Program-made: the position numbers and the translations under genes
In this document: in pieces, positions 3,156-26,315 of the stretch
Layout: each line of letters opens with the position of its first letter
How positions within the stretch are numbered: position 1 is the first letter of the stretch
The notes under the pieces: model-generated
Databases searched by the model: none
What the model was told of the DNA's origin: nothing
What the model saw: the letters and a program-made list of their open reading frames with translations, nothing else
NCBI GenBank assembly: GCA_964538665.1
Contig: CAZIEB010000001.1
Location: forward strand, 7,031 to 71,030
DNA length: 64,000 nt
Source of the DNA: an uncultured Candidatus Saccharibacteria bacterium
Lineage (GTDB): Bacteria; Patescibacteriota; Saccharimonadia; Saccharimonadales; Saccharimonadaceae
Reading direction: 5' to 3'

Positions 3156-3170
3156 AGACAAATAATCAAA

Positions 3171-3266: not shown

Positions 3267-3698
3267 ATGAGCCACCTAGTAAAATGGGACCCATTCTCAG
3301 AGCTCACCGCTCTGCAAAAACAATTTTTCGGCGACGACTGGATGTCGCCACTCAAAGGTGTCAATATACCGACGACGGATGTCTATACCAAGGATAATAA
3401 CCTTGTGGTCGAAGCTCATTTACCAAACTTTGAGCAAAAAGACATCAATGTCCATATTGATGAAGGATCATTAATTGTCAGTGCTGAACGCCATGAAAAA
3501 GACGAAGACAAGGGCAAGCAATACGTTGTGCGCGAAAGCTCGAGTAGTTTTTATCGTCGGATTTCATTGCCAAAACGAGCCGATGCCGACAAAATCAAAG
3601 CTTCGCTTGATGACGGGGTATTGCATGTCACTATTCCGCTGACGCCGCTGCCTGAGCCCAAGAAAATTTCTATAGACGCTAAGCCAGCCAAGAAATAA
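3267..3698 (+). CDS. Hsp20/alpha-crystallin small heat-shock protein
   Basis: ATG 3267 preceded by GGAAAGGAG. Alpha-crystallin core DVYTKDNNLVVEAHLPNF...FYRRISLP...ASLDDGVLHVTIP. Confidence 0.9.
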   Translation: MSHLVKWDPFSELTALQKQFFGDDWMSPLKGVNIPTTDVYTKDNNLVVEAHLPNFEQKDINVHIDEGSLIVSAERHEKDEDKGKQYVVRESSSSFYRRISLPKRADADKIKASLDDGVLHVTIPLTPLPEPKKISIDAKPAKK

Positions 3699-3724
3699 CC
3701 GCTACAGCACCAGGGTCGTTTCCT

Positions 3725-3733
3725 TGCTATACT
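3725..3733 (+). promoter_or_regulatory. Extended -10 TGcTATACT, 8 nt upstream of ATG 3742
   Basis: Read directly. No SD before the start codon. Confidence 0.45.
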
Positions 3734-3741
3734 AGTGCTAT

Positions 3742-5136
3742 ATGCCTGCATGGTCTGAAGCACTCGTATTCTTGCTCATAGTCTGGGTTTTTGCTCGAAT
3801 TATCAAACGCAATGTCGCACTGTTTCAACAATACTTTATCCCAAGCTCGATTATTGGAGGGCTGTTGTTACTGATAACGGGGCCGCAAATTTTTGGAATT
3901 GTCCCTGGCTCAAGTGCTGAGTTTTTGTCGCTCTTGCCGGCATTGCTAATCAATGTTGTCTTTGCTGGATTGTTCCTCGGTAAACCAACGCCAGGGCCAC
4001 GTCAGATTTGGCAGCAAGCCGGTCCGATGATAGCCTTTGGCGGTACGATAGCCTGGGGTATGTATGTACTTGGAATCTTGTTAACCATGCTACTACTGAC
4101 GCCATTATTCGGCGCGCCACCAATCTTTGGAGCTTTGCTCGAAGTTAGCTTTACCGGCGGCCATGGCACAGCAGCAGGACTTGCACCGATGTTTGCTGAG
4201 CTTGGCTGGCCCGAAGCAACCGATATTGCACTCGGACTTGCTACATTCAGTATCATCACAGCCGTCATTGTTGGTATCACAATCATCAATATATACAACC
4301 GTCGGGTAGGGCGAGCACTCGACCGTGCAACGATGGCAGTTCAGCAAAAACGGATGATCAAAAATGGATATAGTCTCGTCAGGGTATCAAGCCGGTTCGA
4401 AAAAAATCCACATGAGCTGACAATTGTTGCGATACTGTTTGCAGTTGCGATTGCGATCGGGTGGCTGATCTTACGATCACTAGTATGGCTTGAAAGCATC
4501 ATACTCGGCGATGTGACTGATATACGGTTCTTCGTGCATCTGCCGCTCTTTCCGCTCGCAATGTTTGGTGGCTTGATTGTGCAGATGGTACTTAGCCGCA
4601 CAAATCTGATTCGCCATGTCAGCCGGGTTACTGTGCAGACAATCGGTATTATAGCGCTTGATCTACTCATTATTACGGCGATTGGCACGATGTCACTCAA
4701 TGTTATCGGCAGTAACTTTGCGTCGTTTATTATTTTGGCGCTGAGCGGCGTGGCCTGGATACTTGCCAGCTTTTATTTTCTTGCGCCGCGGATTTTTCGT
4801 CGACACTGGTTTGTCTACGGCATCACGGATACGGGTCAGGCAATGGGCATGACTGCGACTGGACTGCTCCTCAATCGTCTCGCTGACCCGACCAACCGTA
4901 CCGGTGTTCGCGAAGCATTTGCGTACAAGCAACTCGCATTTGAGCCCTTCATGGGCGGTGGTATTGTGACTGCTATGGCGGCAATTGCAATTGTCGAAAT
5001 CGGTCAAATTCCGTCACTGATTATTGCATCGGTCTTTACATTATTTTGGTTATTTGTTGGATTATCGCTCGGGTCACGAGGTTTTCGACGGCTCAAGCGT
5101 GACCTCCGTATCGGTAGTTTTGCGATTCGCCTCTGA
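3742..5136 (+). CDS. gltS: Sodium/glutamate symporter (GltS/ESS family) homolog
   Basis: Polytopic 464-aa protein. FQQYFIPSSIIGGLL and SFTGGHGTAAG correspond to the E. coli GltS blocks KKYTIPEPVAGGLL and LSGGHGTGAA as I recall them. Confidence 0.7.
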   Translation: MPAWSEALVFLLIVWVFARIIKRNVALFQQYFIPSSIIGGLLLLITGPQIFGIVPGSSAEFLSLLPALLINVVFAGLFLGKPTPGPRQIWQQAGPMIAFGGTIAWGMYVLGILLTMLLLTPLFGAPPIFGALLEVSFTGGHGTAAGLAPMFAELGWPEATDIALGLATFSIITAVIVGITIINIYNRRVGRALDRATMAVQQKRMIKNGYSLVRVSSRFEKNPHELTIVAILFAVAIAIGWLILRSLVWLESIILGDVTDIRFFVHLPLFPLAMFGGLIVQMVLSRTNLIRHVSRVTVQTIGIIALDLLIITAIGTMSLNVIGSNFASFIILALSGVAWILASFYFLAPRIFRRHWFVYGITDTGQAMGMTATGLLLNRLADPTNRTGVREAFAYKQLAFEPFMGGGIVTAMAAIAIVEIGQIPSLIIASVFTLFWLFVGLSLGSRGFRRLKRDLRIGSFAIRL

Positions 5137-11298: not shown

Positions 11299-11301
11299 AC
11301 C

Positions 11302-11701
11302 TTATCCAAGCAAGGATTTCATCTTGCGCGCAATGAGTTTGGTCGCATAGACGGGGCTGAGTCGATATAGTTTGTACATTGTCTTGGTGTCTTTGCCGAC
11401 AAGTATATGTGGGGTATTGTGCTCGATACCACGTACAATCCTGACTGCAGCGTCATGTGCGCTAAGCAGCGAGAATGATTGCTGATCATGCTGCGCGAGT
11501 TCGGGTGGTGTGACGCCGGAGTTTGCGGTGGGTGAGGCGATCGGCATGGTCCGACACGCGAGATTTGAGCTCATCGAGCATGGGCTGCCTGAGGTCGATT
11601 GCAGCAACTATCGCGCCTCTCTCGAGTAGGACGCGGACAATTTCACTCCCGATACCACCGCCTGCTCCAGTAACAGCAAAGATTTTGTTTTGGATATGCA
11701 T
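11302..11701 (-). pseudogene. Frameshifted and internally deleted SDR gene
   Basis: ORF 11486..11701 gives the Rossmann start MHIQNKIFAVTGAGGGIGSEIVRVLLERGAIVAAIDL. ORF 11302..11607, in another frame, gives an SDR-type C-terminus (...HDAAVRIVRGIEHNTPHILVGKDTKTMYKLYRLSP). Only about 400 nt remain, against roughly 800 expected. Confidence 0.7.
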
Positions 11702-11840
11702 ACTCTAGAGTATAGCAACCGCAAAGTAAGCCACACAAGCACAGTGCTATTGACATAGGGTAAGACCTCTTGTCACCACCGAGCAAGTGTTGTATGCTAA
11801 TGCTTATAAACCTATTAACACAACAAAAGGAAATCAAGAA

Positions 11841-12344
11841 ATGAGAAATAAGCTTCTCGTCGCTGCAGTCGTCCTGGTGGGACTGGCTTCTGTCGCCTAC
11901 GCTGCATTTACGCAGACATTGACTATTAGCGGTACAGGAAACGCCACTGGAGAATGGGATGTCGCAATAACCGGAATAACTCGGACAGCTGCAACAGGTG
12001 CAACTGATGTTTCTGCTCCGACCTTTAACGGTACGTCAGCAACATTTGATGTAAATCTTGCATATCCAGGTGCGACGGCTACCTATGAAATTGAAGTGAC
12101 AAATGACGGCACTATACCCGCTGTTCTCGCAACGATTGATGGGCTTACCCAGGCGAATGCGGCAGCACCTACGTACATTGATTACACATTGACTGGTGTG
12201 ACAGCTGGCTCTACAACATTGGCTGCAAACGGTGGGACAAATACTGTGACGCTGGAGGTCGAATGGGACCTAGCTGATGCAACAAGTAACCCAGCAGCGA
12301 CGAAGACGGCAACAATTACGCTTGACTACGAGCAAGATACGTAG
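11841..12344 (+). CDS. TasA/camelysin-like exported protein with a SipW-type signal peptide
   Basis: ATG 11841 after aaaagga. The signal peptide ends ...LASVAYAAFTQ (compare TasA ...WAAFND). The beta-rich mature part has LAYPGATATYEIEVTNDGTIPAVL. Confidence 0.6.
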   Translation: MRNKLLVAAVVLVGLASVAYAAFTQTLTISGTGNATGEWDVAITGITRTAATGATDVSAPTFNGTSATFDVNLAYPGATATYEIEVTNDGTIPAVLATIDGLTQANAAAPTYIDYTLTGVTAGSTTLAANGGTNTVTLEVEWDLADATSNPAATKTATITLDYEQDT

Positions 12345-12376
12345 GCCATTCAATTAAAGGCTAGAATGGATACACA

Positions 12377-13186
12377 GTGCCTCGATATAGACGATATCCT
12401 TCACTGTTATACCAGTTAGTCGGGTTGATTATCGTACCCCTCGCCCTTGTCAGCGTGGGGTACGCTCTATTTGCTCAAGATCTATCAATTGCAACAACGA
12501 CGCGTAAGCCGTCATATACATCAAACCAGGGTATGATGGTATCCTATGGGCGCACGTTGACGTTCGTTAGTTCCAGTTGGCAATACAATTTAGCACCATT
12601 TACTGTTGCGAATAACGGACCGTTTCCTGTTACATCATGGACGGTGACATTTACCGTGCCTAGTACTACGACCAACATATCCTGTACCGGAGCTGTTTGT
12701 ACTAGAAGCGGTACGACAATGACAGTTACAAATACGACGACGAATGGGAACCTCGCGGTTGGAGCGTCAGTCACACCGACCGTTACTTTCCGACTCACGA
12801 CACAAACCCATTACCTCGATAACATCACGATCTCTGGTGTGCAAGATTTGTATCAGCAGTATAACGGTTTAGGTGTCACCTTCACGAGGGGTACGAGGAC
12901 ACGGTCGGGTCAGTGGTACCGCTGGCCATATACATTTACTGTCACAAATACGTCCGGCACCAATATGAGTTCATGGCGTATCGTGGGACTACCATGGACA
13001 ACTACTAATAACCGAGTTAATACCATGCAGACTACGGTGAATTACGTATCAAGCAACAACGGTCTTACGATTACGAGTAAAAATGCGCTTAACAACGGGT
13101 CGACATTTGTTTTTACGGGTAATTTAGAATCAAGAAATCAAAACTGGGTGCTATCAACACCGGTTGAGATAAAAGGAATTCAATGA
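12377..13186 (+). CDS. Second SipW-type exported protein with two CBM2-like beta-sandwich modules
   Basis: The N-terminus ...LVSVGYALFAQDLSI parallels the first substrate. Two modules have W..x..F/TVxN..G...sW...(T/N)..N..L..G.s pattern. ATGA overlap with the next gene. Confidence 0.5.
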   Translation: MPRYRRYPSLLYQLVGLIIVPLALVSVGYALFAQDLSIATTTRKPSYTSNQGMMVSYGRTLTFVSSSWQYNLAPFTVANNGPFPVTSWTVTFTVPSTTTNISCTGAVCTRSGTTMTVTNTTTNGNLAVGASVTPTVTFRLTTQTHYLDNITISGVQDLYQQYNGLGVTFTRGTRTRSGQWYRWPYTFTVTNTSGTNMSSWRIVGLPWTTTNNRVNTMQTTVNYVSSNNGLTITSKNALNNGSTFVFTGNLESRNQNWVLSTPVEIKGIQ

Positions 13187-14355
13187 AAATTTCCCGATTG
13201 TTTGCTGTCCCGACAAGTCATTGGCTGATTCTCGCAGCGCTAATGAGTATTCCGGCCACTGGCGTAGTCAGCACATATGTCGGTGGTATATCATCATCGC
13301 TTGTGATGTATTGGCTGCAACCGCTGATCGCACTATCAATTGCCGGATTGACAAGGGTGACTATTGGGCCGTCGCGTAATAGAGCTCGTCACTCGACCGA
13401 AAAAACGTATATGGTTGCCGCGGTCATTGCTTTATGGTTTGTGGTGTATTTCTTGTCCGGGCTAATTCTGACGTTTGTAAGGAATTCACTCGTGACTGGG
13501 TTTTGTCCGGTGGCGGCAAATGTCGCGGCGTTTGGTGTGTCGGCGCTTGCTGTCGAATATGTACGATACTTGCTGATGGGGTCTGTGAGTCGGCGGTTGA
13601 TTGTGCCGTTTGGCGTCGTGGTAGCCATTGCGTTTGCATTTGTCATTATGCCGATAAACCAACTGACGAGTGTTACATCAGCCGAAGTAGCCATCAAGGT
13701 CACCACGGCGACAGTCGTGCCGTCAATTGCAAGCAGTTTACTGCTCACCTACTTGGCGGTGGCAGCTGGGTTTGGCAGCATGTTGGTGTATCGACTCGGT
13801 GTTGTGGCAATTGGGCTATTGCCGCCAATAATTCCCAACTATGACTGGTACTTGATAGGAATTTCGTCGTTGATTCTCGTGGTAGCCGTCTATCTCGTGG
13901 TTGACTCGATGCTACAAGAGCAATCGACGCGGACGAACCGTCATTATCGTCTTGTGCAGCGCGCCTCCAACGCTATGTATGTGCTGGTGCTAATCGCAGT
14001 TGTGAGTTTTATGACGGGGGTATTTAGCTACAGGCCAATAGCAATTGTGTCTAACAGCATGCAGCCAGTCTATAGTCGTGGTGCAATGGTGGTGATACAA
14101 CGAGTCGACGAGTCGATGGACATCGAAGTTGGCGATATTGTACAATATCAATCAGAAGGAAAAACAATAACTCACAGGGTGGTGGCAGTTGACGCAGCGA
14201 GCGACGGAAGCGGTAATCGTGTCTACACGACAAAAGGCGACAACAGCCCGAGTCGTGACCCGATCATTAGTCGACAACAAATCGTCGGGGTGGTTCGAGC
14301 ACAAATACCGTATATTGGCTATCCGACCGTATGGCTCAGAGAGGCGGCTCTATAA
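13183..14355 (+). CDS. sipW: SipW-type (ER/archaeal-type S26) signal peptidase fused to a roughly 285-aa polytopic N-terminal domain
   Basis: The C-terminal roughly 105 aa are IVSNSMQPVYSRGAMVV...GDIVQY...ITHRVV...TTKGDNSPSRDP (Ser, His and GDN motifs). The N-terminal part has about 8 predicted TM helices in the same continuous ORF. Confidence 0.8.
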   Translation: MKISRLFAVPTSHWLILAALMSIPATGVVSTYVGGISSSLVMYWLQPLIALSIAGLTRVTIGPSRNRARHSTEKTYMVAAVIALWFVVYFLSGLILTFVRNSLVTGFCPVAANVAAFGVSALAVEYVRYLLMGSVSRRLIVPFGVVVAIAFAFVIMPINQLTSVTSAEVAIKVTTATVVPSIASSLLLTYLAVAAGFGSMLVYRLGVVAIGLLPPIIPNYDWYLIGISSLILVVAVYLVVDSMLQEQSTRTNRHYRLVQRASNAMYVLVLIAVVSFMTGVFSYRPIAIVSNSMQPVYSRGAMVVIQRVDESMDIEVGDIVQYQSEGKTITHRVVAVDAASDGSGNRVYTTKGDNSPSRDPIISRQQIVGVVRAQIPYIGYPTVWLREAAL

Positions 14356-15491
14356 TGGCGCTTGATATTACGCCGGGCGAATCAAAGAGACCACTCGGTG
14401 TCGTAGTGCTCGGTGTTGTTTTGATACTTGTTGGCGGGTATTTTCTGTATGACGCCGAGCGACAAAAATCGTCATTTGTCTACGTGCCGTCGGACTATGA
14501 ATATAGTGTACGTCAATCAGTAAATACAGATGTCAAATATCTTGATAACAGCTTTTTTCCGAATGGTCCTGGGACAAATAATGCTGCGTATGTCAAAGAT
14601 CTTACGGATACTGTTACGGCTGAGTTCTTCTATAACTTTGAGGCAAATGAAGATGCCTCACTTACCTATACCTATGATGTCAAAGCGCGAGTGCTCGGCA
14701 AGCACGCCGACCGCGGCGATGAGTCAAAATCAGTCAATGTCTGGTCGCAGGAATACCAGCTTGTCCAACCAGTGACTCGTACAGAGTCGACCCGTACCGT
14801 GACGATTGAGCCTCGCGTCGAGGTGCCATTTGCACAATATAAAGACACTATCGAGCAGTTTAAGACTGCACTGGCGGTCCCTATCAACAGCGAGATGGTG
14901 GTAGAGACAACCGTTCGTATGGAGGGGACAATTGGCGATATACCATTTGAAGACAAGCGCGTCATGAGTGTGACTGCTCCGCTCGATCAGCAGGCTTATA
15001 CGCTGGCTGTCAAGTACGACAAAGAAGATACAAAACCAGTTGTAGCCGAAGGAGAAAAAGATAACCGAGAGCATTGGCTTCGGTATACGACGATTGGCGC
15101 CGTGGCCGCAATGGTAATCGGTGTTGGGCTTGTCGGGTTTGGATTTAGGAAACAAATATTTAAGACGCCGTATCAACGAGAGCTAGAGCGGATATATCGA
15201 TACCATGATGGCATTATCATCAAAGCTCGCCAGCCTGCTGATATCGACGGTAAACGTATTGTCCCAGTACTTTCGTTTGATGATATGCTTAATCTTGAGG
15301 AAGAGCTCAAGTCACCTATTGTGGCGAGTCCTGCAGGGAGCGAGGCAACTCAGTTTATTATCATCCATGGTGACATCGCCTATTTGTATACCCTTGGCAA
15401 GCTAGTACTCGACGATCAGACATCCGCTGCGGTGCATGACATGTTTGTCGATGATATCGTCACTGCTCCTCGAAAAAAGTCTAAAAAATAA
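14355..15491 (+). CDS. Single-pass membrane protein, DUF5305-like
   Basis: TAATG overlap with the sipW-like gene. One TM near the N-terminus, a large beta-rich ectodomain, a second TM (AVAAMVIGVGLVGFGF) and a cytoplasmic tail. The layout matches my recollection of SipW-linked DUF5305 proteins. Confidence 0.45.
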   Translation: MALDITPGESKRPLGVVVLGVVLILVGGYFLYDAERQKSSFVYVPSDYEYSVRQSVNTDVKYLDNSFFPNGPGTNNAAYVKDLTDTVTAEFFYNFEANEDASLTYTYDVKARVLGKHADRGDESKSVNVWSQEYQLVQPVTRTESTRTVTIEPRVEVPFAQYKDTIEQFKTALAVPINSEMVVETTVRMEGTIGDIPFEDKRVMSVTAPLDQQAYTLAVKYDKEDTKPVVAEGEKDNREHWLRYTTIGAVAAMVIGVGLVGFGFRKQIFKTPYQRELERIYRYHDGIIIKARQPADIDGKRIVPVLSFDDMLNLEEELKSPIVASPAGSEATQFIIIHGDIAYLYTLGKLVLDDQTSAAVHDMFVDDIVTAPRKKSKK

Positions 15492-15509
15492 CAATTACTA
15501 CATACGAAT

Positions 15510-16055
15510 ATGGCATTACAAATCAAAAGACGACGCAGCACCTACGATGCACGAAGAAATATGATACATGTTGCGCGTCGTAAAAACCGTTGGAAACGGA
15601 CACTTATCAGTATCATCGTGGTGGTGCTGCTACTGCTGCTTGCAGGTGCTCTCTATACCTGGTATATGGGCAAGTATTCACCAGAGCCAGTAGCACAGCA
15701 AATCGAAGAACCGGTCGAGAGGCCAAAAACAGCCGATACGCCGGTCGACGAAACCGCAAAAGTAGGGGTTGCAGAGCAAATATTTACCCGTACAGTCACG
15801 CAGGGCGACAATGCATCGTTACAAATAAAAACAAATCGACTGGCGGCCTGTTCGATCACGGTAGAGTATGATAAGCGACTAAGCGAAGATACTGGGCTTG
15901 TCCCGAAAAAGGCTGATGAGTACGGCGTGGTATCGTGGGCATGGACTGTAGAGGTCGACCGTCCTGTGGGACGTTGGCCAGTGACTATCACTTGTGCTAA
16001 CGAAAAAAATTCAGCAGTACATATAGTGTATTTAAACATAGAGAAAAAGGAATAA
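15510..16055 (+). CDS. Membrane-anchored hypothetical protein
   Basis: Basic N-terminus, one TM (LISIIVVVLLLLLAGALY), and a roughly 110-aa beta-rich ectodomain with 2 Cys. Confidence 0.5.
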   Translation: MALQIKRRRSTYDARRNMIHVARRKNRWKRTLISIIVVVLLLLLAGALYTWYMGKYSPEPVAQQIEEPVERPKTADTPVDETAKVGVAEQIFTRTVTQGDNASLQIKTNRLAACSITVEYDKRLSEDTGLVPKKADEYGVVSWAWTVEVDRPVGRWPVTITCANEKNSAVHIVYLNIEKKE

Positions 16056-16056
16056 G

Positions 16057-16893
16057 CTAGTCAAGATTGGCTATATATGCTGACCATACGTTGTCATTTA
16101 TCTTTACGGGAGACTTAATCAGTATCATATTCCCAGATTTTTTTAGTATTACGGACTGTGGGCCGTCCGCGGAATTACTCACAAAAAAGACAGTTCCGTC
16201 ATTTGCTTCTGCTCGTGAAACAGCTCCAAATTCCTGTGCGATTTCCTTGATGTCTTCATCTGGGTTGTTCGTGAAACCACTTGGCAACGGTTGTTGACTC
16301 ACGGTAATCTTGACACTTCCTATAGTATCCACAAAAGCAAAAACAGGATTACGATCAGGCGGGCTAACCCTCGTCCATCCTCCGAGTGTTTCAATTGATT
16401 TTCCACTTGGGAGTAGTGTGGAAAATTCGGGAGTTTTGCCCCCTACATCTATCGCCTCCGTCGGCTGGTTGCCAGGCTGTTCATCTGATGATGATTCTTG
16501 ACGTGCATTTATACTGTATAGACCAACACCGACTGCTACTAGTGCAACGAGAAAGACGCTCACTATACGCTTCTTCGACAACATTCTTTTGAGTGTGTTT
16601 TTGGTTGATAAGGCAGGTTTGTGTGGTAGCTTAAGTTGTCGGCCTTTGGGCCACTTGGCTATTACTTTCGGCACATTAACAATGAGGTATTTCGTTGAGC
16701 GCAATACTGAGGTGAGTATCTTATGGACCGTTCCTCCTGCAAGTTCTCGAATCGGGGTCTTATCGTGAACATCTATGAGAGGTTCCTCAAGATTGGTCTC
16801 TGGCGTGAGTATTCCTTGTGATGAACCATAAGACCCCGTATTTTTATTTGGAGTGACAGGCGGATTTTTTAAATGGTTGCGGTATTTCATCAT
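16057..16893 (-). CDS. Hypothetical single-pass membrane protein (last gene of the giant-protein operon)
   Basis: ATGA overlap with the stop of the 2078-aa gene. Central TM IVSVFLVALVAVGVGLY and a C-terminal extracytoplasmic domain. Confidence 0.55.
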   Translation of the reverse strand: MMKYRNHLKNPPVTPNKNTGSYGSSQGILTPETNLEEPLIDVHDKTPIRELAGGTVHKILTSVLRSTKYLIVNVPKVIAKWPKGRQLKLPHKPALSTKNTLKRMLSKKRIVSVFLVALVAVGVGLYSINARQESSSDEQPGNQPTEAIDVGGKTPEFSTLLPSGKSIETLGGWTRVSPPDRNPVFAFVDTIGSVKITVSQQPLPSGFTNNPDEDIKEIAQEFGAVSRAEANDGTVFFVSNSADGPQSVILKKSGNMILIKSPVKINDNVWSAYIANLD

Positions 16894-19800
16894 TGTGAAT
16901 AATAAGGTGTATCAATAGGTTGCTGAAGCCCCCCTGTAAACGTACGTCCGTGCATAAGTCGTTTTGAAGGATCGCCGGTGAACTGAAGTGATAAGCTGTC
17001 TATGGTAGGTCCGCGAGTAACATCATCAGGATACCCATATGCCTGCGAACTATCAACCGATACGTAAAAGAAGAAATATCGTGCACAATTGGTATTTGTG
17101 CCGGCAGCGTTTTTCGGAGTATATACTCCAGGTACACCGAGTGATACATTGCCAAAGAAAGTTTCCTGCCCCCACGTCGTCATGGGGGGCGAAGTACAAT
17201 AGGTCGTTGGGTTGGTCATCGAACGATACCGTAACTGCCAGTTAGCGCCTACAGAATTGTCTATGCCGTTCATGAGCCAAGCGTTTGGATAGACATCAGT
17301 GTCTGTGTCCATCAGCATAGAATAGCGAGCAATTTGCGGCTGTGATATTAATGCGCTTTGTTGGATTTCATTTGCACCTGTATAGGTGACTATGGGTAGC
17401 GGTGGACGAATCGCAATTGTGAAACCAATACCGCTTTGACTGTTCGACATTGTGAAATTGCCTGGTGTTTCTGAAACAGTAGTTAATGTACGCCGCGCGG
17501 AACTTACGCTTGCGCCATTTGTTCCTGAGTCGACATTGGCATGAGTGCCATTTGAGTAATCTGTCGGGTAGCTACTTACCCCTGTGTACATGCTACCAGC
17601 CACGTAAGCGATCCATAAGCTGTCAGTTGCACCCCATGGAGCGGAAACCGTTGGCATTGCTCGTGTTGCGCTCGTGGAGCCAGTGCCAACCGCTACCTCA
17701 ATACCATCATCGATATCGCCATACCATTGATCTTTGGGTATTCGGTATACTTGCGCGGCGGCGCGTTGCGCATTCGATGTAGCGAAGTTGACAGTGGTCC
17801 CGTCACTCCCTGTCGCTACTTTGGCCCAGACTGAGCCGTAGCCGCCGTTGGTTGCACTATTCTGGCTAATCAGCTCGGTCCAGCCACCAGCACCGTCTGG
17901 ATCGGTGACGCTCGGATTACCATTACTATCGTAGCTAAACAGCATGAGCAGAAGGTCTCCTGCTACTGTCGTGCTCGGCATACTCACGTTGTGAGTAGTG
18001 CTATCACTGGTAAAACCAGTACCAGAATTAGTAGTCGTTATGGACGAAACGCTCGGCGTAGTTGTAGTAGAACAACCGCCTCCCACTATGTACGCTTTGC
18101 CGTCATAATACAAAGCGCCAGCACCATACCGATCACCAGCATATTTTTGGTTTGCTTCATACCAAGCTCCTATACCAGTCGGATTATTGCCGCTCGCGAT
18201 TGTTGTATTTGCACTTATAGGCGCTACAAATGTAGTTGGTGTGCAGGTAACGTTACTACTTCTTCCACCCACCAAATACATGTATCCGTTTGATCCGAAT
18301 GCCTCGGCAAAGGCAACAGGGCGAGGGAGGCTCGTTGAGTATGTCCAGCTACCAACTGAGCCATCGGTGCTGTTGATCTGGGCGTACTGGCTGTCCGAGT
18401 GATAGTACGTTCCGTCATAACCTCCAAATAAGTAGAGGTTGTTTCCGTAGGCAGTTACGGCCAATCCACTACGCCCAACGTTGATATTGGGGCTACTCGT
18501 TGTCCATGAAGATGAAATATTGCCACCACTGTTGAGTTGTGGACTCACGTATACATTCGAACATATACCTGAGCTACATGAACCAGCAGTTCCTTCGCCG
18601 CCGACGATATATAGTCGATTATTCCAGCTCGCTGCACCAAACTTTGATCGAGCGTTGGGCAATCCATTTGTTGCAGTAGCCCAACTGGACACATCGCCGG
18701 AGCCATTTGGCGTTGCATAATAAATTTCAGCACGTCGGTCATTGGCGTTATCGCTATGACCGCCGACGTAATACAATGACCCTCCTGCACTTAATAATTT
18801 ACCCCATGCCCGATCAGCGGGTAGCCCAGCTGATGTGTTTGACCAGCTTCCTATATTGCCATTCACGTCGATTTGCGCATAAGATACAGTGTTTACTGCG
18901 TTGGTACAATCTCGTGTACTGACACAACCGCCAGCGACGTATATGCGACCATTGTGTACGACATTGCCGGCCCCAATGCGGTTTGGGTTTGTGGTATAAC
19001 TATTTGCTGCCCCGCTGTACTCTGCAGGTGCTCCACTGACGTTGTTATAGATTTGGAATGTTTGTATTGTATCTGTTCTTGTTGTACAACCGCCAGGACT
19101 ATCACCAATTGTGCATCCGCCAATTACATATGCGAATGAATTTGATACCGTGACGGTCAGTCCCCATCGTTGATTGATTTTGACATCCGACATCGTAAAT
19201 CCTTCTGATACACTACCAAGACTACCGTCACTCACATTAACTTTAATGAATTCAATATCTGCTACCACTCCTGACCCGCCAGCTTCAAAGCCTCCAGCTA
19301 CGTATATATAACCGTTGTACCCGAACGCAGCAGTACGGCGTCGCCCAACCTGCATTTGGTTTGGTGATTCTATCCATCCCGAGCCGCTTACTGCTACAAC
19401 GTTGTTATTGTTATCAAATTTAGCGTAGCGAACAGTTTTCATATCAACGAGGCCAGGAGCAACACCCCCGATGAGATATATATAATTTGCATAGACAGTT
19501 CCGCTCATAATACCTATACCGGTACCGGTCGCACCCGGCACCGTACCAACCTGTTGTTGATTGGAAGTCGAGCAGCTGCTCACAGCGCCATCAAGGGCAA
19601 TATTGCACTTAAATACATTTTGCGTATATGCGGTGCAACCAGCAGAACTCGAGGATGTGCATCCTCCGAAAATATAGAGATTCCCTGGCGTAGAGTCGAT
19701 TGCAGCGGGATTTGCCCGCGCGTAGGCATATGAGTATGAAACATTCGTGGCGCCAATGCCTGTTAACGATTGGGATGTCCAGCCACTTGCACTACCGTCA

Positions 19801-22800
19801 CTATACAGATCGGCGCGGATGATAGAATTAGTGTTCGAAGATCCACTTAATCCGCCGACTAGGTAGACCTGTCCTCGAAATGTAACTGGGCTGGCTGCAG
19901 CAAGACCAGTAGGGAGTACATTTGAGTTAAAGCACCAAGCACCTCCCTGGTATGAGCCCCCCGGGCACGTTGTCGGGCGAATAATTGAACCATCGGTGTC
20001 AATCGCGGAGTATACTACGTCATTACTCGTTGAGCTGCAGGAATTGTTGGTACAGCCTCCGACGATATAAAGATGTCCATTATATATGAAGCTACTAGTC
20101 AGCATATTTCCAACATAAGTTGTTCCTGGTAGATTGCATTGCTCAGGGTCAGATCCCCAACATGGGGTTGATGAATTATTAGCATACGTTTCACCTACGG
20201 TACTGGCATCTCCGTCGCGGTTGATTTTACCGTATCTAATAGCGTCCAGAGTTGCTTCTCCACAATCGCCAGTAGACCCGTTTTGTGACACGCATCCACC
20301 TACTCTATATAGGTGTCCGCGCCAAGATATCAGATTACCCCCGAGCCGTTCATCGAGTGCTGTACCGACAGTATTCCACGTATCCAGGCTGCCATCTGCA
20401 TTTATACTTGCCAGCTGGATGCTACTATGTACCCCTGTACAATATCCGCTTCCATTAACCGCGCTACAGCCGCTACTGATATATAAATAAGCTCCCCATA
20501 CTGCCGCCATAGTACCGCCGCCGGTAAACCTACCAGAAGGCAGAGGGGTAGTCGATATCCAGTTGTTGAGAGATCCATCTGCATTGATTTTGTTGTAATA
20601 GCTAGCAGTTTGCGGTGCTCCGCCGACGCTGTTCGAACCTCCCAGCACATATATTCGATCGTTGTAGATTGCTGCACCGTGTCCATATACATTTGATGGC
20701 AGGGCAGTAGATGATGCCCAAGAACCAAGTGTACCGGTTGGACGAATATCTGCTATTTGAACTGAAGAAACTGGCCCAGACGAAGACCGACCACCTATTA
20801 GGTAGAGCCTATTATTGTATGCTGTTGCGGTAAAATCCGATCGGACTGATGTGAGGTTACTATCTTGATACCAATAAACCCAAGTATTTGGGTCGGTGTT
20901 TGTTGGGTGCCAGAGACGGGGTTCACCGTTTGCGCCGATTTTGGCGATGTAAACTGTGCTTTGCAACGTACCGCTCGCATTTGCGCCACCGATTGCATAC
21001 AAATAGCCGTTGTACGCAACGAGGGAGAAATTAGAACGCTCGGACGGAAGTGCATAATCGCTCGACGAGCACCATCCCGCACACGTTCCTGAGCCAGGAT
21101 TCGCACTTTGTACAGCACCAGTTGTCGTGTTAAATTCTGCCCAACTGACATTTTTCGTGATTTCGGTGCCTGATCCATAAGAAATAAAAATTGCTCCATT
21201 TGCGCCAAAAGAGCCACCTTGGCCACTTGCACCACCTCCACCACCATCACCAGCTCCACTTCGTATCGGGTCGGAGGCATTTCCTGGACTAGTGCCACTT
21301 CCCGCACTATTAGTGACGCTAGAGAGGCCTCCTGCAGTGTAGCTTGATCCACCACCACCACCACCACCTGATGAGTTGGTCGTACTAGATGTCGCACCTC
21401 CACCTCCACCACCGTAGTAGCCGGCTCCACCACCACCACCAGCCGCTCGTGTGGCGTTGACGTTTCCAAGGCCGCCATTTCCTCCGCCTATCAATCCGCC
21501 AAAACCACCACCACCATCTGCACCGGACGAGGCACTTCGACCATCGGCACCCAGACCACCCGTTAATGATGATCCTGACGTACCGGAGTTGTTACCACCT
21601 TGTCCACCACTACCGCCACTGGACTGGGTGCCAGGCCCACCACCGTCACCGTTGTTATTGTATTCAGTATCACCAATAACACCTGTCGTGCCACCACCAG
21701 CTCCACCATCTGCACCAGTTCGGGCAGAGCGTGCACCACCTCCTCCTCCACCACCAGCAGCAATTACAAGGGGCGTACTGCCTCGATAAATACTTGAAAT
21801 TCCACCACCACCACCACCACTACCTGTAGTTGTAGTATTATTTCCACCACCTCCACCACCACCGACATAGATGTCTAATGGTTCACCCGGAGTTACTGGG
21901 ATAACCGCTGTGACATAACCTCCACCTCCACCGTTTCCGCCTGATGCGCCTGATCCACCACCACCTCCACCTCCTCCGGGTCCCCAAACCTTTACGGTGA
22001 TGCTGGTGACACCTGCGGGAACAACAAACGTCTCTGCTCCCTGGGTGTTAAATGCTTGCCCTTGAAACGATCGTCCACCAGCTGAGTAGATATATCCTCC
22101 GGCTGCGGCAACCCCGTTTGCAGACGTTGCTACTGGTAGCGATTGTGTATTCTCCCACTGGTCAAAACGTGCACCGGTGGTAGGTGCTTTTTGGATAAGT
22201 TTTTCATCAACATTGAAGTCAATATTGGTTTCATTGTTCCCGGCCATGAACTCACGCGCACTGGTAACATAAATACTTGGGTCAATCGATAGAGGGAATG
22301 ACGCTTTGCTCAGCCCCGTTGTCACTATCGATAGTTTATTACCGTTCAACTCAAATTTTGAGCGGGCGTACTCTGATTCTTGGCCATTAGACTCAACGAC
22401 TATCGGGCTTGGTATCTTGAACATGAGATCTGTTTTTTGAGCATTCTGACGCATTTTTTCCAGAAGTTTGGCATCTTCATCTGAAGATGCGACAATATTA
22501 CTACTTGTAACGGTGTTGCCATATATTCCTATCCCGCCATCTTTTTCTAACCGAGCTTCTAGTGTATTTCCAATATCTAATACATAGGTAAATGTGGCGG
22601 TGTCTGATTTTGAACTATTCAACAGAATATCTTCTTTTATGCCCGTACTCTGGATTGTATATACCGCCCATCCATCAGAGTCTTTTAGTGGATATACTAT
22701 ACGATTTTCATCCTTTCGCCCGATAAGGTACGCATCAGATGCTTTTAAGGTTAGGTCTACGTTATATACTTTGTCGGATAAGGTAAAACCATCACTAAGC

Positions 22801-23126
22801 TTTGTATTAAACGAGGCTTTAATACCTTGTTGCATTCCATTGACGTCATCAGGAGATTCGTAAGCAAAGGTTTTTGCCTGTTCGTCATATTTGAGTTTAT
22901 TAGCAACCGTTTGGTTAGTTGCAGGTATTAGTGAGGCCGCATTGCCCAGGTCATAAGGTGCTGGCTTGATTAATGGAGTTAAAAAATAGGCTAGATCAGC
23001 AATAATAAGTATCAGTACCAGTAATATACTGTTGATTCTTCGTAAGCGAGTACTAAAAAAAGTGGCACGAGCTGAACTGAGTATACTTTTAATAGTCGGC
23101 AAAACGCGTCGAAAGAAATCTCTCAT
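16890..23126 (-). CDS. Giant (2078 aa) membrane-anchored surface protein: glycine-rich domain, about 17 Kelch-like blades and C-terminal beta-rich domains
   Basis: Uninterrupted 6.2-kb ORF. N-terminal TM ILLVLILIIADLAYFL. Gly-rich block begins FVVPAGVTSITVKVWGPGGGGGGGG. Repeated motifs of the type YNGYLYAIGG, YNNRLYLIGG, YNDRIYVLGG, WNNRLYIVGG and so on. Confidence 0.85.
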   Translation of the reverse strand: MRDFFRRVLPTIKSILSSARATFFSTRLRRINSILLVLILIIADLAYFLTPLIKPAPYDLGNAASLIPATNQTVANKLKYDEQAKTFAYESPDDVNGMQQGIKASFNTKLSDGFTLSDKVYNVDLTLKASDAYLIGRKDENRIVYPLKDSDGWAVYTIQSTGIKEDILLNSSKSDTATFTYVLDIGNTLEARLEKDGGIGIYGNTVTSSNIVASSDEDAKLLEKMRQNAQKTDLMFKIPSPIVVESNGQESEYARSKFELNGNKLSIVTTGLSKASFPLSIDPSIYVTSAREFMAGNNETNIDFNVDEKLIQKAPTTGARFDQWENTQSLPVATSANGVAAAGGYIYSAGGRSFQGQAFNTQGAETFVVPAGVTSITVKVWGPGGGGGGGGSGASGGNGGGGGYVTAVIPVTPGEPLDIYVGGGGGGGNNTTTTGSGGGGGGISSIYRGSTPLVIAAGGGGGGGARSARTGADGGAGGGTTGVIGDTEYNNNGDGGGPGTQSSGGSGGQGGNNSGTSGSSLTGGLGADGRSASSGADGGGGFGGLIGGGNGGLGNVNATRAAGGGGGAGYYGGGGGGATSSTTNSSGGGGGGGSSYTAGGLSSVTNSAGSGTSPGNASDPIRSGAGDGGGGGASGQGGSFGANGAIFISYGSGTEITKNVSWAEFNTTTGAVQSANPGSGTCAGWCSSSDYALPSERSNFSLVAYNGYLYAIGGANASGTLQSTVYIAKIGANGEPRLWHPTNTDPNTWVYWYQDSNLTSVRSDFTATAYNNRLYLIGGRSSSGPVSSVQIADIRPTGTLGSWASSTALPSNVYGHGAAIYNDRIYVLGGSNSVGGAPQTASYYNKINADGSLNNWISTTPLPSGRFTGGGTMAAVWGAYLYISSGCSAVNGSGYCTGVHSSIQLASINADGSLDTWNTVGTALDERLGGNLISWRGHLYRVGGCVSQNGSTGDCGEATLDAIRYGKINRDGDASTVGETYANNSSTPCWGSDPEQCNLPGTTYVGNMLTSSFIYNGHLYIVGGCTNNSCSSTSNDVVYSAIDTDGSIIRPTTCPGGSYQGGAWCFNSNVLPTGLAAASPVTFRGQVYLVGGLSGSSNTNSIIRADLYSDGSASGWTSQSLTGIGATNVSYSYAYARANPAAIDSTPGNLYIFGGCTSSSSAGCTAYTQNVFKCNIALDGAVSSCSTSNQQQVGTVPGATGTGIGIMSGTVYANYIYLIGGVAPGLVDMKTVRYAKFDNNNNVVAVSGSGWIESPNQMQVGRRRTAAFGYNGYIYVAGGFEAGGSGVVADIEFIKVNVSDGSLGSVSEGFTMSDVKINQRWGLTVTVSNSFAYVIGGCTIGDSPGGCTTRTDTIQTFQIYNNVSGAPAEYSGAANSYTTNPNRIGAGNVVHNGRIYVAGGCVSTRDCTNAVNTVSYAQIDVNGNIGSWSNTSAGLPADRAWGKLLSAGGSLYYVGGHSDNANDRRAEIYYATPNGSGDVSSWATATNGLPNARSKFGAASWNNRLYIVGGEGTAGSCSSGICSNVYVSPQLNSGGNISSSWTTSSPNINVGRSGLAVTAYGNNLYLFGGYDGTYYHSDSQYAQINSTDGSVGSWTYSTSLPRPVAFAEAFGSNGYMYLVGGRSSNVTCTPTTFVAPISANTTIASGNNPTGIGAWYEANQKYAGDRYGAGALYYDGKAYIVGGGCSTTTTPSVSSITTTNSGTGFTSDSTTHNVSMPSTTVAGDLLLMLFSYDSNGNPSVTDPDGAGGWTELISQNSATNGGYGSVWAKVATGSDGTTVNFATSNAQRAAAQVYRIPKDQWYGDIDDGIEVAVGTGSTSATRAMPTVSAPWGATDSLWIAYVAGSMYTGVSSYPTDYSNGTHANVDSGTNGASVSSARRTLTTVSETPGNFTMSNSQSGIGFTIAIRPPLPIVTYTGANEIQQSALISQPQIARYSMLMDTDTDVYPNAWLMNGIDNSVGANWQLRYRSMTNPTTYCTSPPMTTWGQETFFGNVSLGVPGVYTPKNAAGTNTNCARYFFFYVSVDSSQAYGYPDDVTRGPTIDSLSLQFTGDPSKRLMHGRTFTGGLQQPIDTPYYSQ
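18200..21050 (-). repeat. Array of about 17 Kelch-like beta-propeller blades (coding; approximate bounds)
   Basis: Recurrent (Y/W/F)-x-(G/N)-x-(L/I/V)-Y-(L/I/V/A)-(I/V/F)-G-G every 50-60 residues, often followed by ...DGS...W. Confidence 0.7.
21150..22010 (-). repeat. Glycine-rich low-complexity coding region with (CCA)n/(GGT)n microsatellites (approximate bounds)
   Basis: The plus strand shows runs such as ccaccaccaccaccaccacc at 21349-21368 and 21802-21820. The translation is poly-Gly interspersed with S/N/T/A. Confidence 0.8.
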
Positions 23127-23135: not shown

Positions 23136-26100
23136 TTACCTGTTACTGAAGATAAAGTTCAAGTTACCTATATATGCGTTCGAGTTTTGGCTTGCAGTAA
23201 CATTAATTCGAAACACAATACTGTTGCCTGGAGCAAAGCCACAGGTTGAAGGATCAGCCGTTCCGGTGGCTAAACCTGTTTGCCACGACGCCACGGCACC
23301 TGAAGATACCTGTACGAGCGGACCGCAGGTTGTTAGGCCTGAGGCTTGATCATTTTTATACACCTGGTATTCCACGGTTGAGTTAGCACTGTCTGTCAGC
23401 CCCATAATGGAAGTGGTACCTGATTCGAAGGTCTTAAAGGTTGCTGGTAATTGATAGGTAACATACACGCTATATGTTTGAGCGCTTGGTTGAGGGGATG
23501 ACCAACGATAAAAATTGTAGGTTTCATTTGTACCGCATACGTCAGGTTGGCCAGATGTGCCGTCATTTATATTTAACGTATCTGAACAAAGATCCGAGAC
23601 CATTGTTCCTATACCGGTGCCATGTAGCACCGCGTTTGTAAATTCTGGTGCAATAGTTACGACGGTATTTGGACTTGAGCCACAGGCTCCCCAACCATCT
23701 GCCTCATAGCACTGTAACTTACCAAGCGTCGTATCATAATACATCGAGCCTAATAGTGCATCGTTGTTTATAGCAATCGGAGCAGATGCTGCTTTGTCTA
23801 GTGTGAGCAGTGTAGTAGGGCCACCATTCTCTCCACCCCCGATTTGTACGTTCGGAGCGGTGTTGGTGGTTAAGGTCATCGTGAATGCATCGACATTGAA
23901 CGTACGGGCTGCCGAAGCTTCTCCAACAAAATATACATGGGGATTAGTTGCAACCGTGGCATCTGTTTGTATAAAACAAGTTACTTTCGTCCACTGAGAT
24001 GTTGATATTGATCTGGTGTTGTAGTCGACGCAGTCAATATAGTTGCCTCCCGCCGTCGTACTGCCATCTCGAGAATAGCGGATCTTAAAGTCATTGAATG
24101 TGCCTGATGCTACCTTAGCGTAGGCGGTGATACGATACAGCGTGCTAGGCAGCGGGTTCAAAGATAGTTTATTACGAATACCAGCGTTTGCCGCACCTGC
24201 AGAAATTGAAACTCTGGCGCTATCACTTGCATCTTCACCATCGGTAGTACTACGAGTGACAGAGCCTGTCCCTAACCCTGCGTAGAGCCAGTTGGTTGCG
24301 AAGTTATCACCATCTAAGACGCTACCGTCCGTCGCGTAATTAAAATCTGCGGCTATCGTAATACTGAGATTATCAATAAAGAATGTACGAGCTGTGCCTG
24401 CAGACGCTTGTCGTATCATCAATGAGTTATTTGCAGTAATTCCACCTGAAGGTGCTGTGAATGAACAATTTATCTTTGTCCATATGCTCGTTATAGCTGC
24501 CTTAGCAGTTGCGCATTGGGCATTTGCACTTGTTCCGTCAGCTGAATAGTAGACTTCCATATCGGTAAACGTGCCTGATGCCAAACGAGTCGTGAATGAC
24601 ACATTGTACATCATGTTAGGGGATAACTGCGCTTTTAAGCGGTTCGCTACGCCACTATTGATAGAAGTAGATGTAGCAACCGATACCGATCCTTGACCTG
24701 TTGCGATAAAGTTACCAGGGGTCGTGTATCGAGTTACCGATGCACCTGATAAAGCCGACCATGTATTAGCTGGGAACGTGGTTGATGAAGTCCCCGCCGT
24801 TTCTGCGCCGCCGTTTGAAACATACTCCGTAACATTACTATTGACAGAGAGCAAGCCGGCTGCGGAGGAGCTTTGTACGCTCAATAAAGTCCCGTTAACC
24901 GGATCGATAGAACTGTCACGGATAGTCAGACCGTTGGTTGCAGAGGTTTTACTAACGACTAATTCGGCCCCACCAGCACTCTGCAACGTGTTGTCGTAGG
25001 CCGCTTGTAATGTCGTAGAGCTAGAAGCGCCTGATACGGTCCATGCCGATCCATTCCAGACCATCGTGGCGCTACTGTTTTTGCGCATCGCAACAAGATT
25101 TCCTTGTCCACCGCCATTGATTGACAGCTGGAAGTCCTTCGTGGCGTTTGATGCAGTGATATAGACAATTCGTCCTGCTGTAGTGATAGTCGGGTTTGGC
25201 ATAAACGCTGTTTGACCATCATTGGTAAAGCCTACAATTACTGAACCGTTGTTGTTGACCGAGCTTTGTTGAATAGTACAGTTGCTTGTAGTTGTGGTCT
25301 CGGCGCCCCCCGGGAAACAACTCGCATCATTACCAATGGTCTGATAGGCAGCAGTTCCCAATATGACAAGTCCGTTTGATACATTACCTGAGCCTCCAGA
25401 AAGTGTTAGATTACCACCATATTGAGCGCTACCCCCTGCGTTACCACCTTGTACGCTCACATTACCGCCGTTGCCGGTACCATTGCCTGATGCGCCTTGA
25501 ATACTAAGGGCACTACCTTGAGTGTCTGCGCTCGTTTGCGAGGCAGCTTGTAGCGTTGTAGGACTGCTAGCAACTCCGAGCGTTATTTGTGTGGCGCTGA
25601 GGACTAATGAAGCGCTCCCACTTGAGTTGCCTATTGTAACGCCGGTTGCATTTGTTAATCCTATACTAAGGTTTGCACCAGTAGCCGTGTCAATAACTGG
25701 TGTGAGCAAGCCGCTATCAACTCGTGCAGTGCCGCCAATCCAAAAGTTCGCCGCGGTTTGGACGCTTGCGTTTTGATTTTGGATGAAGTCTCCAGCTGTT
25801 TTTCCGCCTAGTTGTAGCGCATTCATCGCGTAAGGCACAGCAGACAATCGTTTCATCGGGACCATTTCACCATCGCCGCCACAGCTACTAAACGGCGTAC
25901 AGCTGACATTGGTATTCCCGATATTCATGCTGAGCCAAAGGGTGTCTTGGTTCCAGTCAATACTGCTGCCAAATGCAGTGACCGAACCAAGTTCGACGGA
26001 CATAAATCCATTGCGCACTAACACGCCCTGAGAGGCGGAATTTATATGATCTTCGGTCCATAGGAGGGTGCCGCCTGGGTTGCCAACGGCGGTACCGGTG

Positions 26101-26315
26101 CCATCTTGGTATATCTTAAATTGGACATTGTAATAACCGTCTGGAACAGTAGCACCAGACGCAGTAAATAGCCGCCCTTGAAAATTGATCGTTTGATTTA
26201 TTCCAGGAGCAGCAGATGATGTCGTAGACCATACGCCACTTAGAGCAACACTACTCATAACGAGCAGTACTACGATAGCAGAGAATAGACGCCGTGGTGA
26301 CACGCCCGAGAACAT
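23136..26315 (-). CDS. Secreted 1059-aa surface protein: tail-fibre-like N-terminal module, Gly/Ser/Thr-rich beta region and two CBM4/9-like jelly-roll modules
   Basis: Signal peptide ...VALSGVWSTTSSAAPG. INFQGRLFTASGATVPDGYYNVQFKIYQDG...LLWTE...NGFMSVELG resembles the N-termini of tail-fibre-domain proteins. Two roughly 150-aa modules end FFIDNLSITIA and FNVDAFTMTL. Confidence 0.75.
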   Translation of the reverse strand: MFSGVSPRRLFSAIVVLLVMSSVALSGVWSTTSSAAPGINQTINFQGRLFTASGATVPDGYYNVQFKIYQDGTGTAVGNPGGTLLWTEDHINSASQGVLVRNGFMSVELGSVTAFGSSIDWNQDTLWLSMNIGNTNVSCTPFSSCGGDGEMVPMKRLSAVPYAMNALQLGGKTAGDFIQNQNASVQTAANFWIGGTARVDSGLLTPVIDTATGANLSIGLTNATGVTIGNSSGSASLVLSATQITLGVASSPTTLQAASQTSADTQGSALSIQGASGNGTGNGGNVSVQGGNAGGSAQYGGNLTLSGGSGNVSNGLVILGTAAYQTIGNDASCFPGGAETTTTSNCTIQQSSVNNNGSVIVGFTNDGQTAFMPNPTITTAGRIVYITASNATKDFQLSINGGGQGNLVAMRKNSSATMVWNGSAWTVSGASSSTTLQAAYDNTLQSAGGAELVVSKTSATNGLTIRDSSIDPVNGTLLSVQSSSAAGLLSVNSNVTEYVSNGGAETAGTSSTTFPANTWSALSGASVTRYTTPGNFIATGQGSVSVATSTSINSGVANRLKAQLSPNMMYNVSFTTRLASGTFTDMEVYYSADGTSANAQCATAKAAITSIWTKINCSFTAPSGGITANNSLMIRQASAGTARTFFIDNLSITIAADFNYATDGSVLDGDNFATNWLYAGLGTGSVTRSTTDGEDASDSARVSISAGAANAGIRNKLSLNPLPSTLYRITAYAKVASGTFNDFKIRYSRDGSTTAGGNYIDCVDYNTRSISTSQWTKVTCFIQTDATVATNPHVYFVGEASAARTFNVDAFTMTLTTNTAPNVQIGGGENGGPTTLLTLDKAASAPIAINNDALLGSMYYDTTLGKLQCYEADGWGACGSSPNTVVTIAPEFTNAVLHGTGIGTMVSDLCSDTLNINDGTSGQPDVCGTNETYNFYRWSSPQPSAQTYSVYVTYQLPATFKTFESGTTSIMGLTDSANSTVEYQVYKNDQASGLTTCGPLVQVSSGAVASWQTGLATGTADPSTCGFAPGNSIVFRINVTASQNSNAYIGNLNFIFSNR

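Follow-up and report, generated by a model that had tools for sequence, protein, structure and literature searches.

How does a signal peptidase come to carry a large membrane domain, and what might that domain do for it? The question is raised by a 64,000-nucleotide (nt) stretch of an uncultured Candidatus Saccharibacteria bacterium (contig CAZIEB010000001.1, assembly GCA_964538665.1, positions 7,031 to 71,030 of the forward strand; hereafter the window, meaning the whole stretch analysed), in which one gene places about eight hydrophobic helices ahead of a C-terminal peptidase. An initial annotation, made from the letters of the sequence, had called this gene a SipW-type signal peptidase with an unusual N-terminal extension. 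Our analysis gives good support to the gene's product being the signal peptidase dedicated to an AbpX-type, TasA-superfamily fibre operon, and the long extension is the rule within this peptidase clade; what the membrane domain does we infer from its anatomy, conservation and company.

Catalytic domain and continuity of the fused gene

The peptidase gene is a single uninterrupted open reading frame (ORF) at 13183..14355 (+), with 390 codons for 390 amino acids (aa) and an ATG start. Its overlaps with both neighbours are visible in the sequence, as the initial annotation had described. At the upstream junction (TTCAATGAAAA) its ATG at 13183 overlaps the TGA at 13184-13186 that ends the ORF at 12377..13186 (ATGA), and at the downstream junction (CTATAATGGCG) its TAA at 14353-14355 overlaps an ATG at 14355 (TAATG). 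The latter, with a Shine-Dalgarno-like GAGAGG motif about 10 nt upstream, is the start of a gene for a DUF5305 protein and is also the start used by public gene calls. Scanning 11300-16950 for promoters and terminators gave a number of sites no higher than in shuffled sequence. From AlphaFold2 models, conservation and profile searches, residues 1-256 (13183..13950, +) form an N-terminal domain of eight transmembrane (TM) helices, hereafter the N-domain. AlphaFold2, the starts of hidden Markov model (HMM) matches and the distribution of charges delimit a basic, predicted cytoplasmic linker with a ninth TM helix (residues ~252-283; 13936..14031, +). TIGR02228, Foldseek and conservation define the predicted extracytoplasmic S26B signal peptidase I catalytic domain that follows (14035..14355, +).

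The catalytic module is indeed C-terminal, and the motifs quoted for it (SNSMQP, GDIVQY, THRVV and KGDNSPSRDP) all lie within residues 290-359. The NCBIfam model TIGR02228 (archaeal-type signal peptidase I) matched residues 266-387 with 79.2 bits against a cut-off of 51.85, whereas the SipW equivalog model NF046067 stayed below threshold (59 bits against a cut-off of 190); the label SipW-type is therefore right for the subfamily in a broad sense and wrong if taken to mean a SipW orthologue. Residues S292, M293, H331, R332, G352, D353 and D359 were invariant across 53 diverse members and 62 loci proteins, archaea included. By this pattern Ser292 is the predicted nucleophile and His331 the predicted general base, in place of Lys, with Asp353 and Asp359 completing the conserved set. 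A Foldseek search with the full-length model matched human SEC11 in the signal peptidase complex (SPC; 7p2q) at E=1.2e-5 and recovered SipA/SpsB too. Residues ~285-390 are an archaeal/endoplasmic reticulum (ER)-type (S26B) Ser-His signal peptidase I.

The ninth helix (residues 252-278 in the AlphaFold2 model) leads into this peptidase, the TIGR02228 and Peptidase_S26 matches start at residues 265-266, and the linker ahead of the helix is basic (R250, R253, R256, R260). Helix nine is the membrane anchor that is usually N-terminal in SipW/Sec11-type peptidases. A comparison of C-terminal tails found no C-terminal TM helix in the window peptidase, in contrast to its archaeal homologues.

We then asked how far the gene's continuity can be trusted. 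The long ORF might be an artefact in which a missed stop, a frameshift or a misassembly has fused the gene of a membrane protein to that of a short SipW, but this reading is effectively excluded. The identical 390-aa protein was called on contigs of two unrelated runs, SRR12762304 and ERR8482638, assembled independently. A homology search returned at least 120 clusters at 90% identity, all full-length (386-402 aa) and aligning end to end at 43-90% identity; the named proteins among them carry the label Candidatus Saccharibacteria. When a profile of the N-domain only was searched against 1.84 billion cluster representatives (E<=1e-3), it found 824 proteins from Saccharibacteria, Clostridia/Bacilli and archaea; 124 of the 150 best matches also carried the peptidase domain, and the remainder were fragments. 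No free-standing N-domain was confirmed in these searches, the candidates being contig fragments or the products of a frameshift split (L004/P0142). A locus scan with the closer alignment as query and one genome per species gave 61 loci, about 40 from Saccharibacteria and the others from Clostridia, Bacilli, Mollicutes and archaea (Methanosuratincola, Bathyarchaeia and Thermoplasmatales), with the cultured Clostridium prolinivorans PYR-10 among the bacterial ones. N-domain and peptidase shared one ORF in 59 of these 61 species-level loci; the two exceptions were a 100-N scaffold gap (L059) and a frameshift. Nothing was found in favour of an artefact, the disrupted loci being the frameshift splits L004/P0142 and L041 and the gap in L059, and the initial annotation's view of one continuous gene is borne out.

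Since the one-ORF fusion recurs across clusters and loci, the long N-terminal extension is the rule of this clade. The initial annotation had presented it as unusual and had named a general occurrence of long extensions as grounds against its reading; within the family this condition holds, a long N-terminus being the norm in hundreds of clusters from bacteria and archaea. An archaeal profile search added about 70 archaeal clusters of about 400-445 aa and returned no Pyrodictium-named protein.

Several variants of the fused protein deserve mention. The 'short peptidase' of L059 was rejected on account of its scaffold gap. A 655-aa 'fusion' (P0238) was rejected too, being two genes with an in-frame TGA between them. 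In the locus concerned (L003:705-2672, contig SRR29758288_884770, 28% G+C), a CBM2-like subunit and the peptidase lie in the same frame with only TGA-TAT between, and the public gene call reads through the TGA to give P0238; this reflects either a TGA-recoding organism or a gene-caller artefact, and the neighbouring DUF5305 gene has no internal TGA. Another locus (L026, JBLMYZ010000021.1), from a metagenome-assembled genome (MAG) labelled Acidobacteriota, is of Saccharibacteria type, with 42% identity and identical gene order on a 10.5-kb contig, and is probably no Acidobacteriota gene but a binning contaminant. Several archaeal members (P0350, P0351, P0354 and P0373, 522-586 aa) exceed the rest by 100-150 aa. 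The 506-aa P0409 joins peptidase and DUF5305 in one protein (PF00717 and PF17231), a combination described for Anaerolinea in a preprint on AbpX fibres (10.64898/2026.01.04.697558).

Anatomy and affinities of the eight-helix domain

Hydropathy and two AlphaFold2 models placed eight TM helices in residues 11-248, in line with the count of about eight hydrophobic helices first proposed. The full-length model had a mean predicted local distance difference test score (pLDDT) of 86, and the model of the N-domain by itself reached pLDDT 88.7 with a predicted template modelling score (pTM) of 0.87. The predicted cytoplasmic loops hold six Lys/Arg residues against one in the outer loops, and the cytoplasmic helix ends are richer in basic residues. 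This bias toward alternate loops predicts an N-terminus inside and a catalytic domain outside. The outer loops are very short, at 4-11 residues.

Among 120 close homologues the conserved positions of the N-domain were N101, N113, E125, R128, RR137/138, K172, S185, T189, Y190, D221-W-Y and D241; across the whole family, including five archaea, N113, P180, Y190, P215, P218, W222, G93, E125 and R128 were still conserved. E125 and R128 stand at 100% outside Saccharibacteria and are invariant in bacteria and archaea. They form an E125-x-x-R128 signature in the cytoplasmic half of TM4; Y190 lies in TM6, and P215-x-x-P218-x-x-x-W222 sits in the outer loop between helices 7 and 8. Just one acidic residue is conserved inside the membrane, and neither the close nor the diverse family alignment contains a conserved Cys or His in residues 1-256. 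Within Saccharibacteria the best-conserved part of the N-domain is its outer-face loops. Two of these, at 96-106 and 213-221, took the form of short paired strands in the full-length model, at pLDDT 77-87 against 64-67 in the N-domain-only model, which hints that they may pack on the catalytic domain.

The initial annotation had offered CPBP, exosortase/archaeosortase and rhomboid proteins as candidate relatives of the extension and had proposed HMM and structure searches on it. These searches returned no family: residues 1-265 of the window protein matched no Pfam or NCBIfam family, nor did residues 1-256 in the 53 diverse members, and at E up to 0.1 the only NCBIfam matches to the window protein were signal peptidase models. 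Searching the PDB with an N-domain sequence profile gave only a chance match to a poxvirus protein (E=0.42). We rejected an exosortase/archaeosortase, which needs Cys-Arg-His, because the domain has no conserved Cys or His, no NCBIfam match and no C-terminal sorting signal on its substrates. A rhomboid/rhombosortase was rejected for lack of a Pfam match, of a conserved GxSG or His, and of any rhomboid among the fold matches. The absence of a conserved Cys or His likewise excludes canonical CPBP chemistry.

A fold-level resemblance to Rce1/CPBP proteins is what the structure searches did return, with non-significant E-values throughout. In the PDB the N-domain superposed on Rce1 (4cad_C) with template modelling scores (TM-scores) of 0.50/0.51 and a root-mean-square deviation (rmsd) of 6.9 A over 264 columns (probability 0.80, E=0.94); in the viral library BFVD it superposed on a phage CPBP protein annotated 'CAAX protease self-immunity' (TM-scores 0.41/0.45, E=3.1). 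The remaining fold matches in the PDB and the viral library had TM-scores at or below about 0.3. It is possible that the helix arrangement is common to, or convergent with, that of Rce1/CPBP.

One reading of these superpositions is that the N-domain is a second, divergent intramembrane protease of the Rce1/CPBP (glutamic intramembrane endopeptidase) fold, in which Glu125, helped by Arg128, Asn113 or Tyr190, would clear the signal peptide or trim the precursor within the membrane. CPBP-family proteins were the only consistent superpositions in two independent structure libraries, and the invariant Glu125/Arg128 pair sits in the cytoplasmic half of TM4; in Rce1 this helix bears the EExxxR motif. 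Set against this, the Glu-Arg spacing is ExxR instead of EExxxR, the FxxxH and HxxxN histidines required by CPBP enzymes are absent, the Foldseek E-values are not significant, and PF02517 (CPBP) matched neither the window protein nor any of the 53 diverse members at E up to 10. As a control we aligned 11 PF02517-annotated CPBP cores with a consensus-like query as seed (alignment A4), in which EExxxR, FxxxH and HxxxN were clearly visible; hhalign of the N-domain against these cores gave 0.4% with both a 30-sequence and a 318-sequence query profile. CPBP membership by sequence was rejected on these grounds (PF02517, hhalign and missing His motifs), and we consider a second protease unlikely.

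The top Foldseek matches by E-value were ZIP metal transporters (7z6n, 8ght). They raise the idea that the N-domain transports ions or small molecules, for instance the calcium bound by AbpX-type fibres, and is fused to the peptidase by chance; calcium is needed for AbpX polymerisation (10.64898/2026.01.04.697558). The ZIP matches, however, have TM-scores of 0.16-0.23 and an rmsd of 15-16 A, which amounts to no real superposition. The N-domain also shows no internal repeat (hhalign of its two halves, 0.4%), its members have no transporter family match in common, and its membrane part offers the one conserved acidic residue already described. A transporter is a far-fetched explanation.

Fibre operon and proposed role of the fusion

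What, then, would the peptidase cleave? Both upstream genes encode fibre-type substrates and the downstream gene a DUF5305 protein, as had been proposed. The first is an AbpX-like (TasA-superfamily) small subunit of 167 aa at 11841..12344 (+), identified by profile search against AbpX structures. Its mechanical ORF starts at GTG 11787, and ATG 11841 is preceded by a ribosome-binding motif (AAAGGAAA). The signal peptide ends ...SVAYA|AF and the mature part is acidic (isoelectric point, pI, ~4.05), as AbpX is described to be (10.64898/2026.01.04.697558). In a single-sequence PDB search AbpX was the sole match (E=1.5; common motif AYPGA..N.GTIPA.LATI), and a profile of six syntenic homologues (alignment A5) retrieved two AbpX structures, 9sj2 (E=6e-4) and 9rhp (E=1e-3), Bacillus subtilis TasA (8aur) appearing in the tail of the matches. 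The second gene (12377..13186, +) encodes a secreted, CBM2-like beta-sandwich subunit of 269 aa, supported by Pfam CBM_2 (E=4.9e-8) and by PDB 3ndy, the CBM2 of endoglucanase D (E=5.5e-5). Its mature part is basic (pI ~10), its cleavage/donor-strand motif reads ..VGYA|LFAQDLSI, and it is probably a minor or tip subunit. The DUF5305 protein (378 aa; 14355..15491, +) matched Pfam PF17231 at E=3e-22; such proteins have been proposed as signal-peptidase accessory subunits (PMC11821415, as TafG; 10.64898/2026.01.04.697558).

The gene order of small subunit (~170 aa), larger subunit (~270-310 aa), peptidase and DUF5305 is conserved from Saccharibacteria to Clostridia/Bacilli and archaea. DUF5305 lay within 400 nt downstream of the peptidase in 56 of the 61 loci, an AbpX-like small subunit anywhere in the locus in 53 (upstream on the same strand in 48), and the gene immediately before the peptidase encoded a CBM2-like subunit in 36; these counts are lower bounds, as some contigs end within the locus. 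Both subunit classes share a motif, [A/G]-Y-A followed by x-[F/Y]-x-Q-x-L-T-I-x-G-T, which argues that the signal peptide ends exactly where the N-terminal donor strand begins. In the unbiased alignment A5, the Tyr and Ala of this motif never vary. A pattern search found the cleavage/donor-strand pattern in 85 subunit ORFs; it demanded an aromatic residue or Leu followed by Ala or Ser, so that its counts describe variants and are no independent test.

Some features of these loci vary. Many Saccharibacteria loci (L012-L015, L018-L021, L023, L024, L027, L032, L037 and L038, at about 3000-4200 in each) have a tandem pair of AbpX-like small subunits upstream of the CBM2-like gene, where the window has one, and some Bacillota loci have extra subunit genes downstream of DUF5305. 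In the window, DUF5305 is followed by a 181-aa protein with one N-terminal TM helix (15510..16055, +) and no Pfam or NCBIfam match, whose membership of the fibre system is doubtful, and by a convergent gene for a 277-aa protein without family assignment (16057..16893, -). Both ORFs occur near the locus in only seven closely related Saccharibacteria loci, at variable distance, and the 181-aa ORF was rejected as a core part of the operon because it is conserved among the closest relatives only. Two very large ORFs of 2078 aa (16890..23126, -) and 1059 aa (23136..26315, -) adjoin the fibre operon. In the former, long stretches rich in Gly accompany many Kelch-like 'Y.(I/V)GG' repeats, and its appearance is that of a giant surface protein.

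The explanation that we favour, with moderate confidence, is that the protein is the dedicated peptidase of an AbpX-type donor-strand fibre operon with a built-in accessory or docking module. The fibre subunits would be exported by Sec and held at the membrane by their signal peptides. The peptidase would cut after Y-A and free the donor strand, which would then insert into a neighbouring subunit and so polymerise the fibre. The eight-TM domain would be a built-in, probably non-proteolytic accessory module with an Rce1/CPBP-like arrangement lacking the catalytic histidines. Its conserved outer loops (N101, PPIIPxxDWY) may pack against the catalytic domain, and its membrane-embedded face with Glu125/Arg128 may dock the signal peptide, the two TM helices of DUF5305, or both. 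Such a protein would be the one-chain equivalent of the eukaryotic signal peptidase complex with its several subunits, and would limit cleavage to the cognate fibre subunits. A scaffolding role, one of those that the initial annotation had suggested, or a docking role is plausible for the N-domain.

Several points weigh against this explanation. The docking or scaffold role is read from anatomy, and the invariant buried Glu-Arg pair and an equally invariant Asn in TM4 could instead mark a catalytic or transport site. The argument from loop ordering is weak, the alignments behind the two models having differed in depth (75 against 30 sequences). TasA/SipW and Tafi/TafD fibres work with peptidases that have no eight-TM domain, and in vitro calcium is all that AbpX needs to polymerise (10.64898/2026.01.04.697558); the domain is therefore dispensable for the polymerisation chemistry. 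Finally, the Pyrodictium abyssi AbpX-locus peptidase WP_338249487.1 is a putative relative.

The N-domain could instead be a membrane assembly platform or anchor for the fibre that holds the filament base or the next tethered precursor and couples cleavage to donor-strand insertion, a functional analogue of an usher or a pilin-polymerising sortase. It is found only with the peptidase in donor-strand fibre loci, where cleavage would create the donor strand. The conservation of its outer-face loops in Saccharibacteria would fit such a role, and the window's operon encodes no other obvious anchor protein. Yet loops of so few residues leave little surface for a folded subunit, neither AbpX nor the related CanX needs a helper to self-assemble in vitro (10.64898/2026.01.04.697558; 10.1101/2024.12.30.630787), and other bacterial AbpX loci use S-layer homology (SLH) or LPXTG anchors (10.64898/2026.01.04.697558). 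We regard a platform as rather improbable. We are similarly doubtful of a further possibility, that the domain belongs to an undescribed family descended from, or converging on, the Rce1/CPBP fold, whose Glu-Arg pair would perform a second step such as signal-peptide clearing or the gating of donor-strand hand-over. If true, one chain would combine two processing activities for donor-strand fibres that assemble without chaperones, and in Saccharibacteria it would belong to a host-attachment fibre, unrecognised until now, with a CBM2-like tip.

Whichever role the domain has, the locus gives Saccharibacteria a full TasA/AbpX-type donor-strand fibre operon, with major subunit, CBM2-like subunit, peptidase and DUF5305. 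Saccharibacteria are episymbionts, and type IV pili have so far been credited with attaching them to their host bacteria; our literature search found no paper linking them with SipW or TasA-type fibres. The analysis also defines a membrane domain that has no Pfam or NCBIfam model and is always fused to this peptidase clade, in bacteria and archaea, and it supplies invariant residues for mutagenesis (N113, E125, R128, P180, Y190, P215, P218 and W222). The remaining interest lies in three features: an unannotated membrane domain with an invariant intramembrane Glu-Arg pair, the weak Rce1-like fold signal of that domain, and a complete AbpX-type operon with a CBM2-like subunit in an episymbiotic lineage.

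Comparison with known systems

The closest known counterpart is the AbpX-associated signal peptidase I (SPase I), to which a preprint of January 2026 attributes 'ten transmembrane helices' (bioRxiv 10.64898/2026.01.04.697558, section 9). That one sentence, which comes without a domain analysis, was the sole mention of a polytopic enzyme found in our literature search. In the same preprint DUF5305 is taken for an accessory subunit of the SPase that recalls the eukaryotic complex, and the phyla given for AbpX homologues are Thermoproteota, Bacillota and Chloroflexota; Saccharibacteria and other members of the candidate phyla radiation (CPR) are not among them. The architecture has thus already been noted, and what is new here is its nine-helix Saccharibacteria member. 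Like the AbpX-associated enzyme, the window protein is of TIGR02228 type, has a polytopic membrane part, and is encoded beside an AbpX-like subunit and, as is usual, DUF5305; its homologues in Thermoproteota (Methanosuratincola, Bathyarchaeia), Thermoplasmatales and Bacillota have the same N-domain. The difference lies in the count, nine TM helices and not ten. Nine are also present in the Bacillota homologues, and archaeal homologues (L057, L063, L064) add a C-terminal TM helix followed by basic residues, which would account for the count of ten.

Rce1/CPBP proteins resemble the N-domain in forming an eight-TM bundle of similar size, in being the only structures that superpose on it (TM-scores 0.41-0.51) and in a conserved Glu and Arg in TM4. 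They differ in having no sequence or profile similarity to it, in their catalytic His motifs and in their Glu-Arg spacing, and the likeness is one of resemblance, not of membership.

B. subtilis SipW is likewise a member of the archaeal/ER-type Ser-His S26 subfamily; its gene lies in a fibre operon, and it processes TasA-superfamily subunits in which the cleavage site marks the start of the donor strand. It is, however, a protein of ~190 aa with N- and C-terminal TM helices and no eight-TM domain, and its operon has TapA and no DUF5305. In the haloarchaeal TafD system (PMC11821415, PMC12337348), a donor-strand fibre locus also pairs a dedicated peptidase with TafG, a DUF5305 protein. In Haloarcula, deletion of TafD abolishes subunit processing and fibre formation, and TafG is the proposed helper (PMC11821415; PMC12337348). 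In TafD, unlike the window protein, the peptidase is N-terminal and accompanied by four predicted TM segments and a second extracellular domain, with no eight-TM N-domain, and the substrates carry twin-arginine translocation (Tat) signals.

The eukaryotic SPC (SEC11, SPC22/23, SPC25 and SPC12; 7p2q, 7p2p) offers the widest parallel. Among structures, SEC11 matches the catalytic domain best, and both systems combine a peptidase with several extra TM helices and an extracytoplasmic beta-sandwich partner, provided here by DUF5305. Separate, unrelated subunits contribute these extra helices in the SPC, whereas in the window protein eight are fused to the enzyme itself; the parallel would be one of function only, not of homology.

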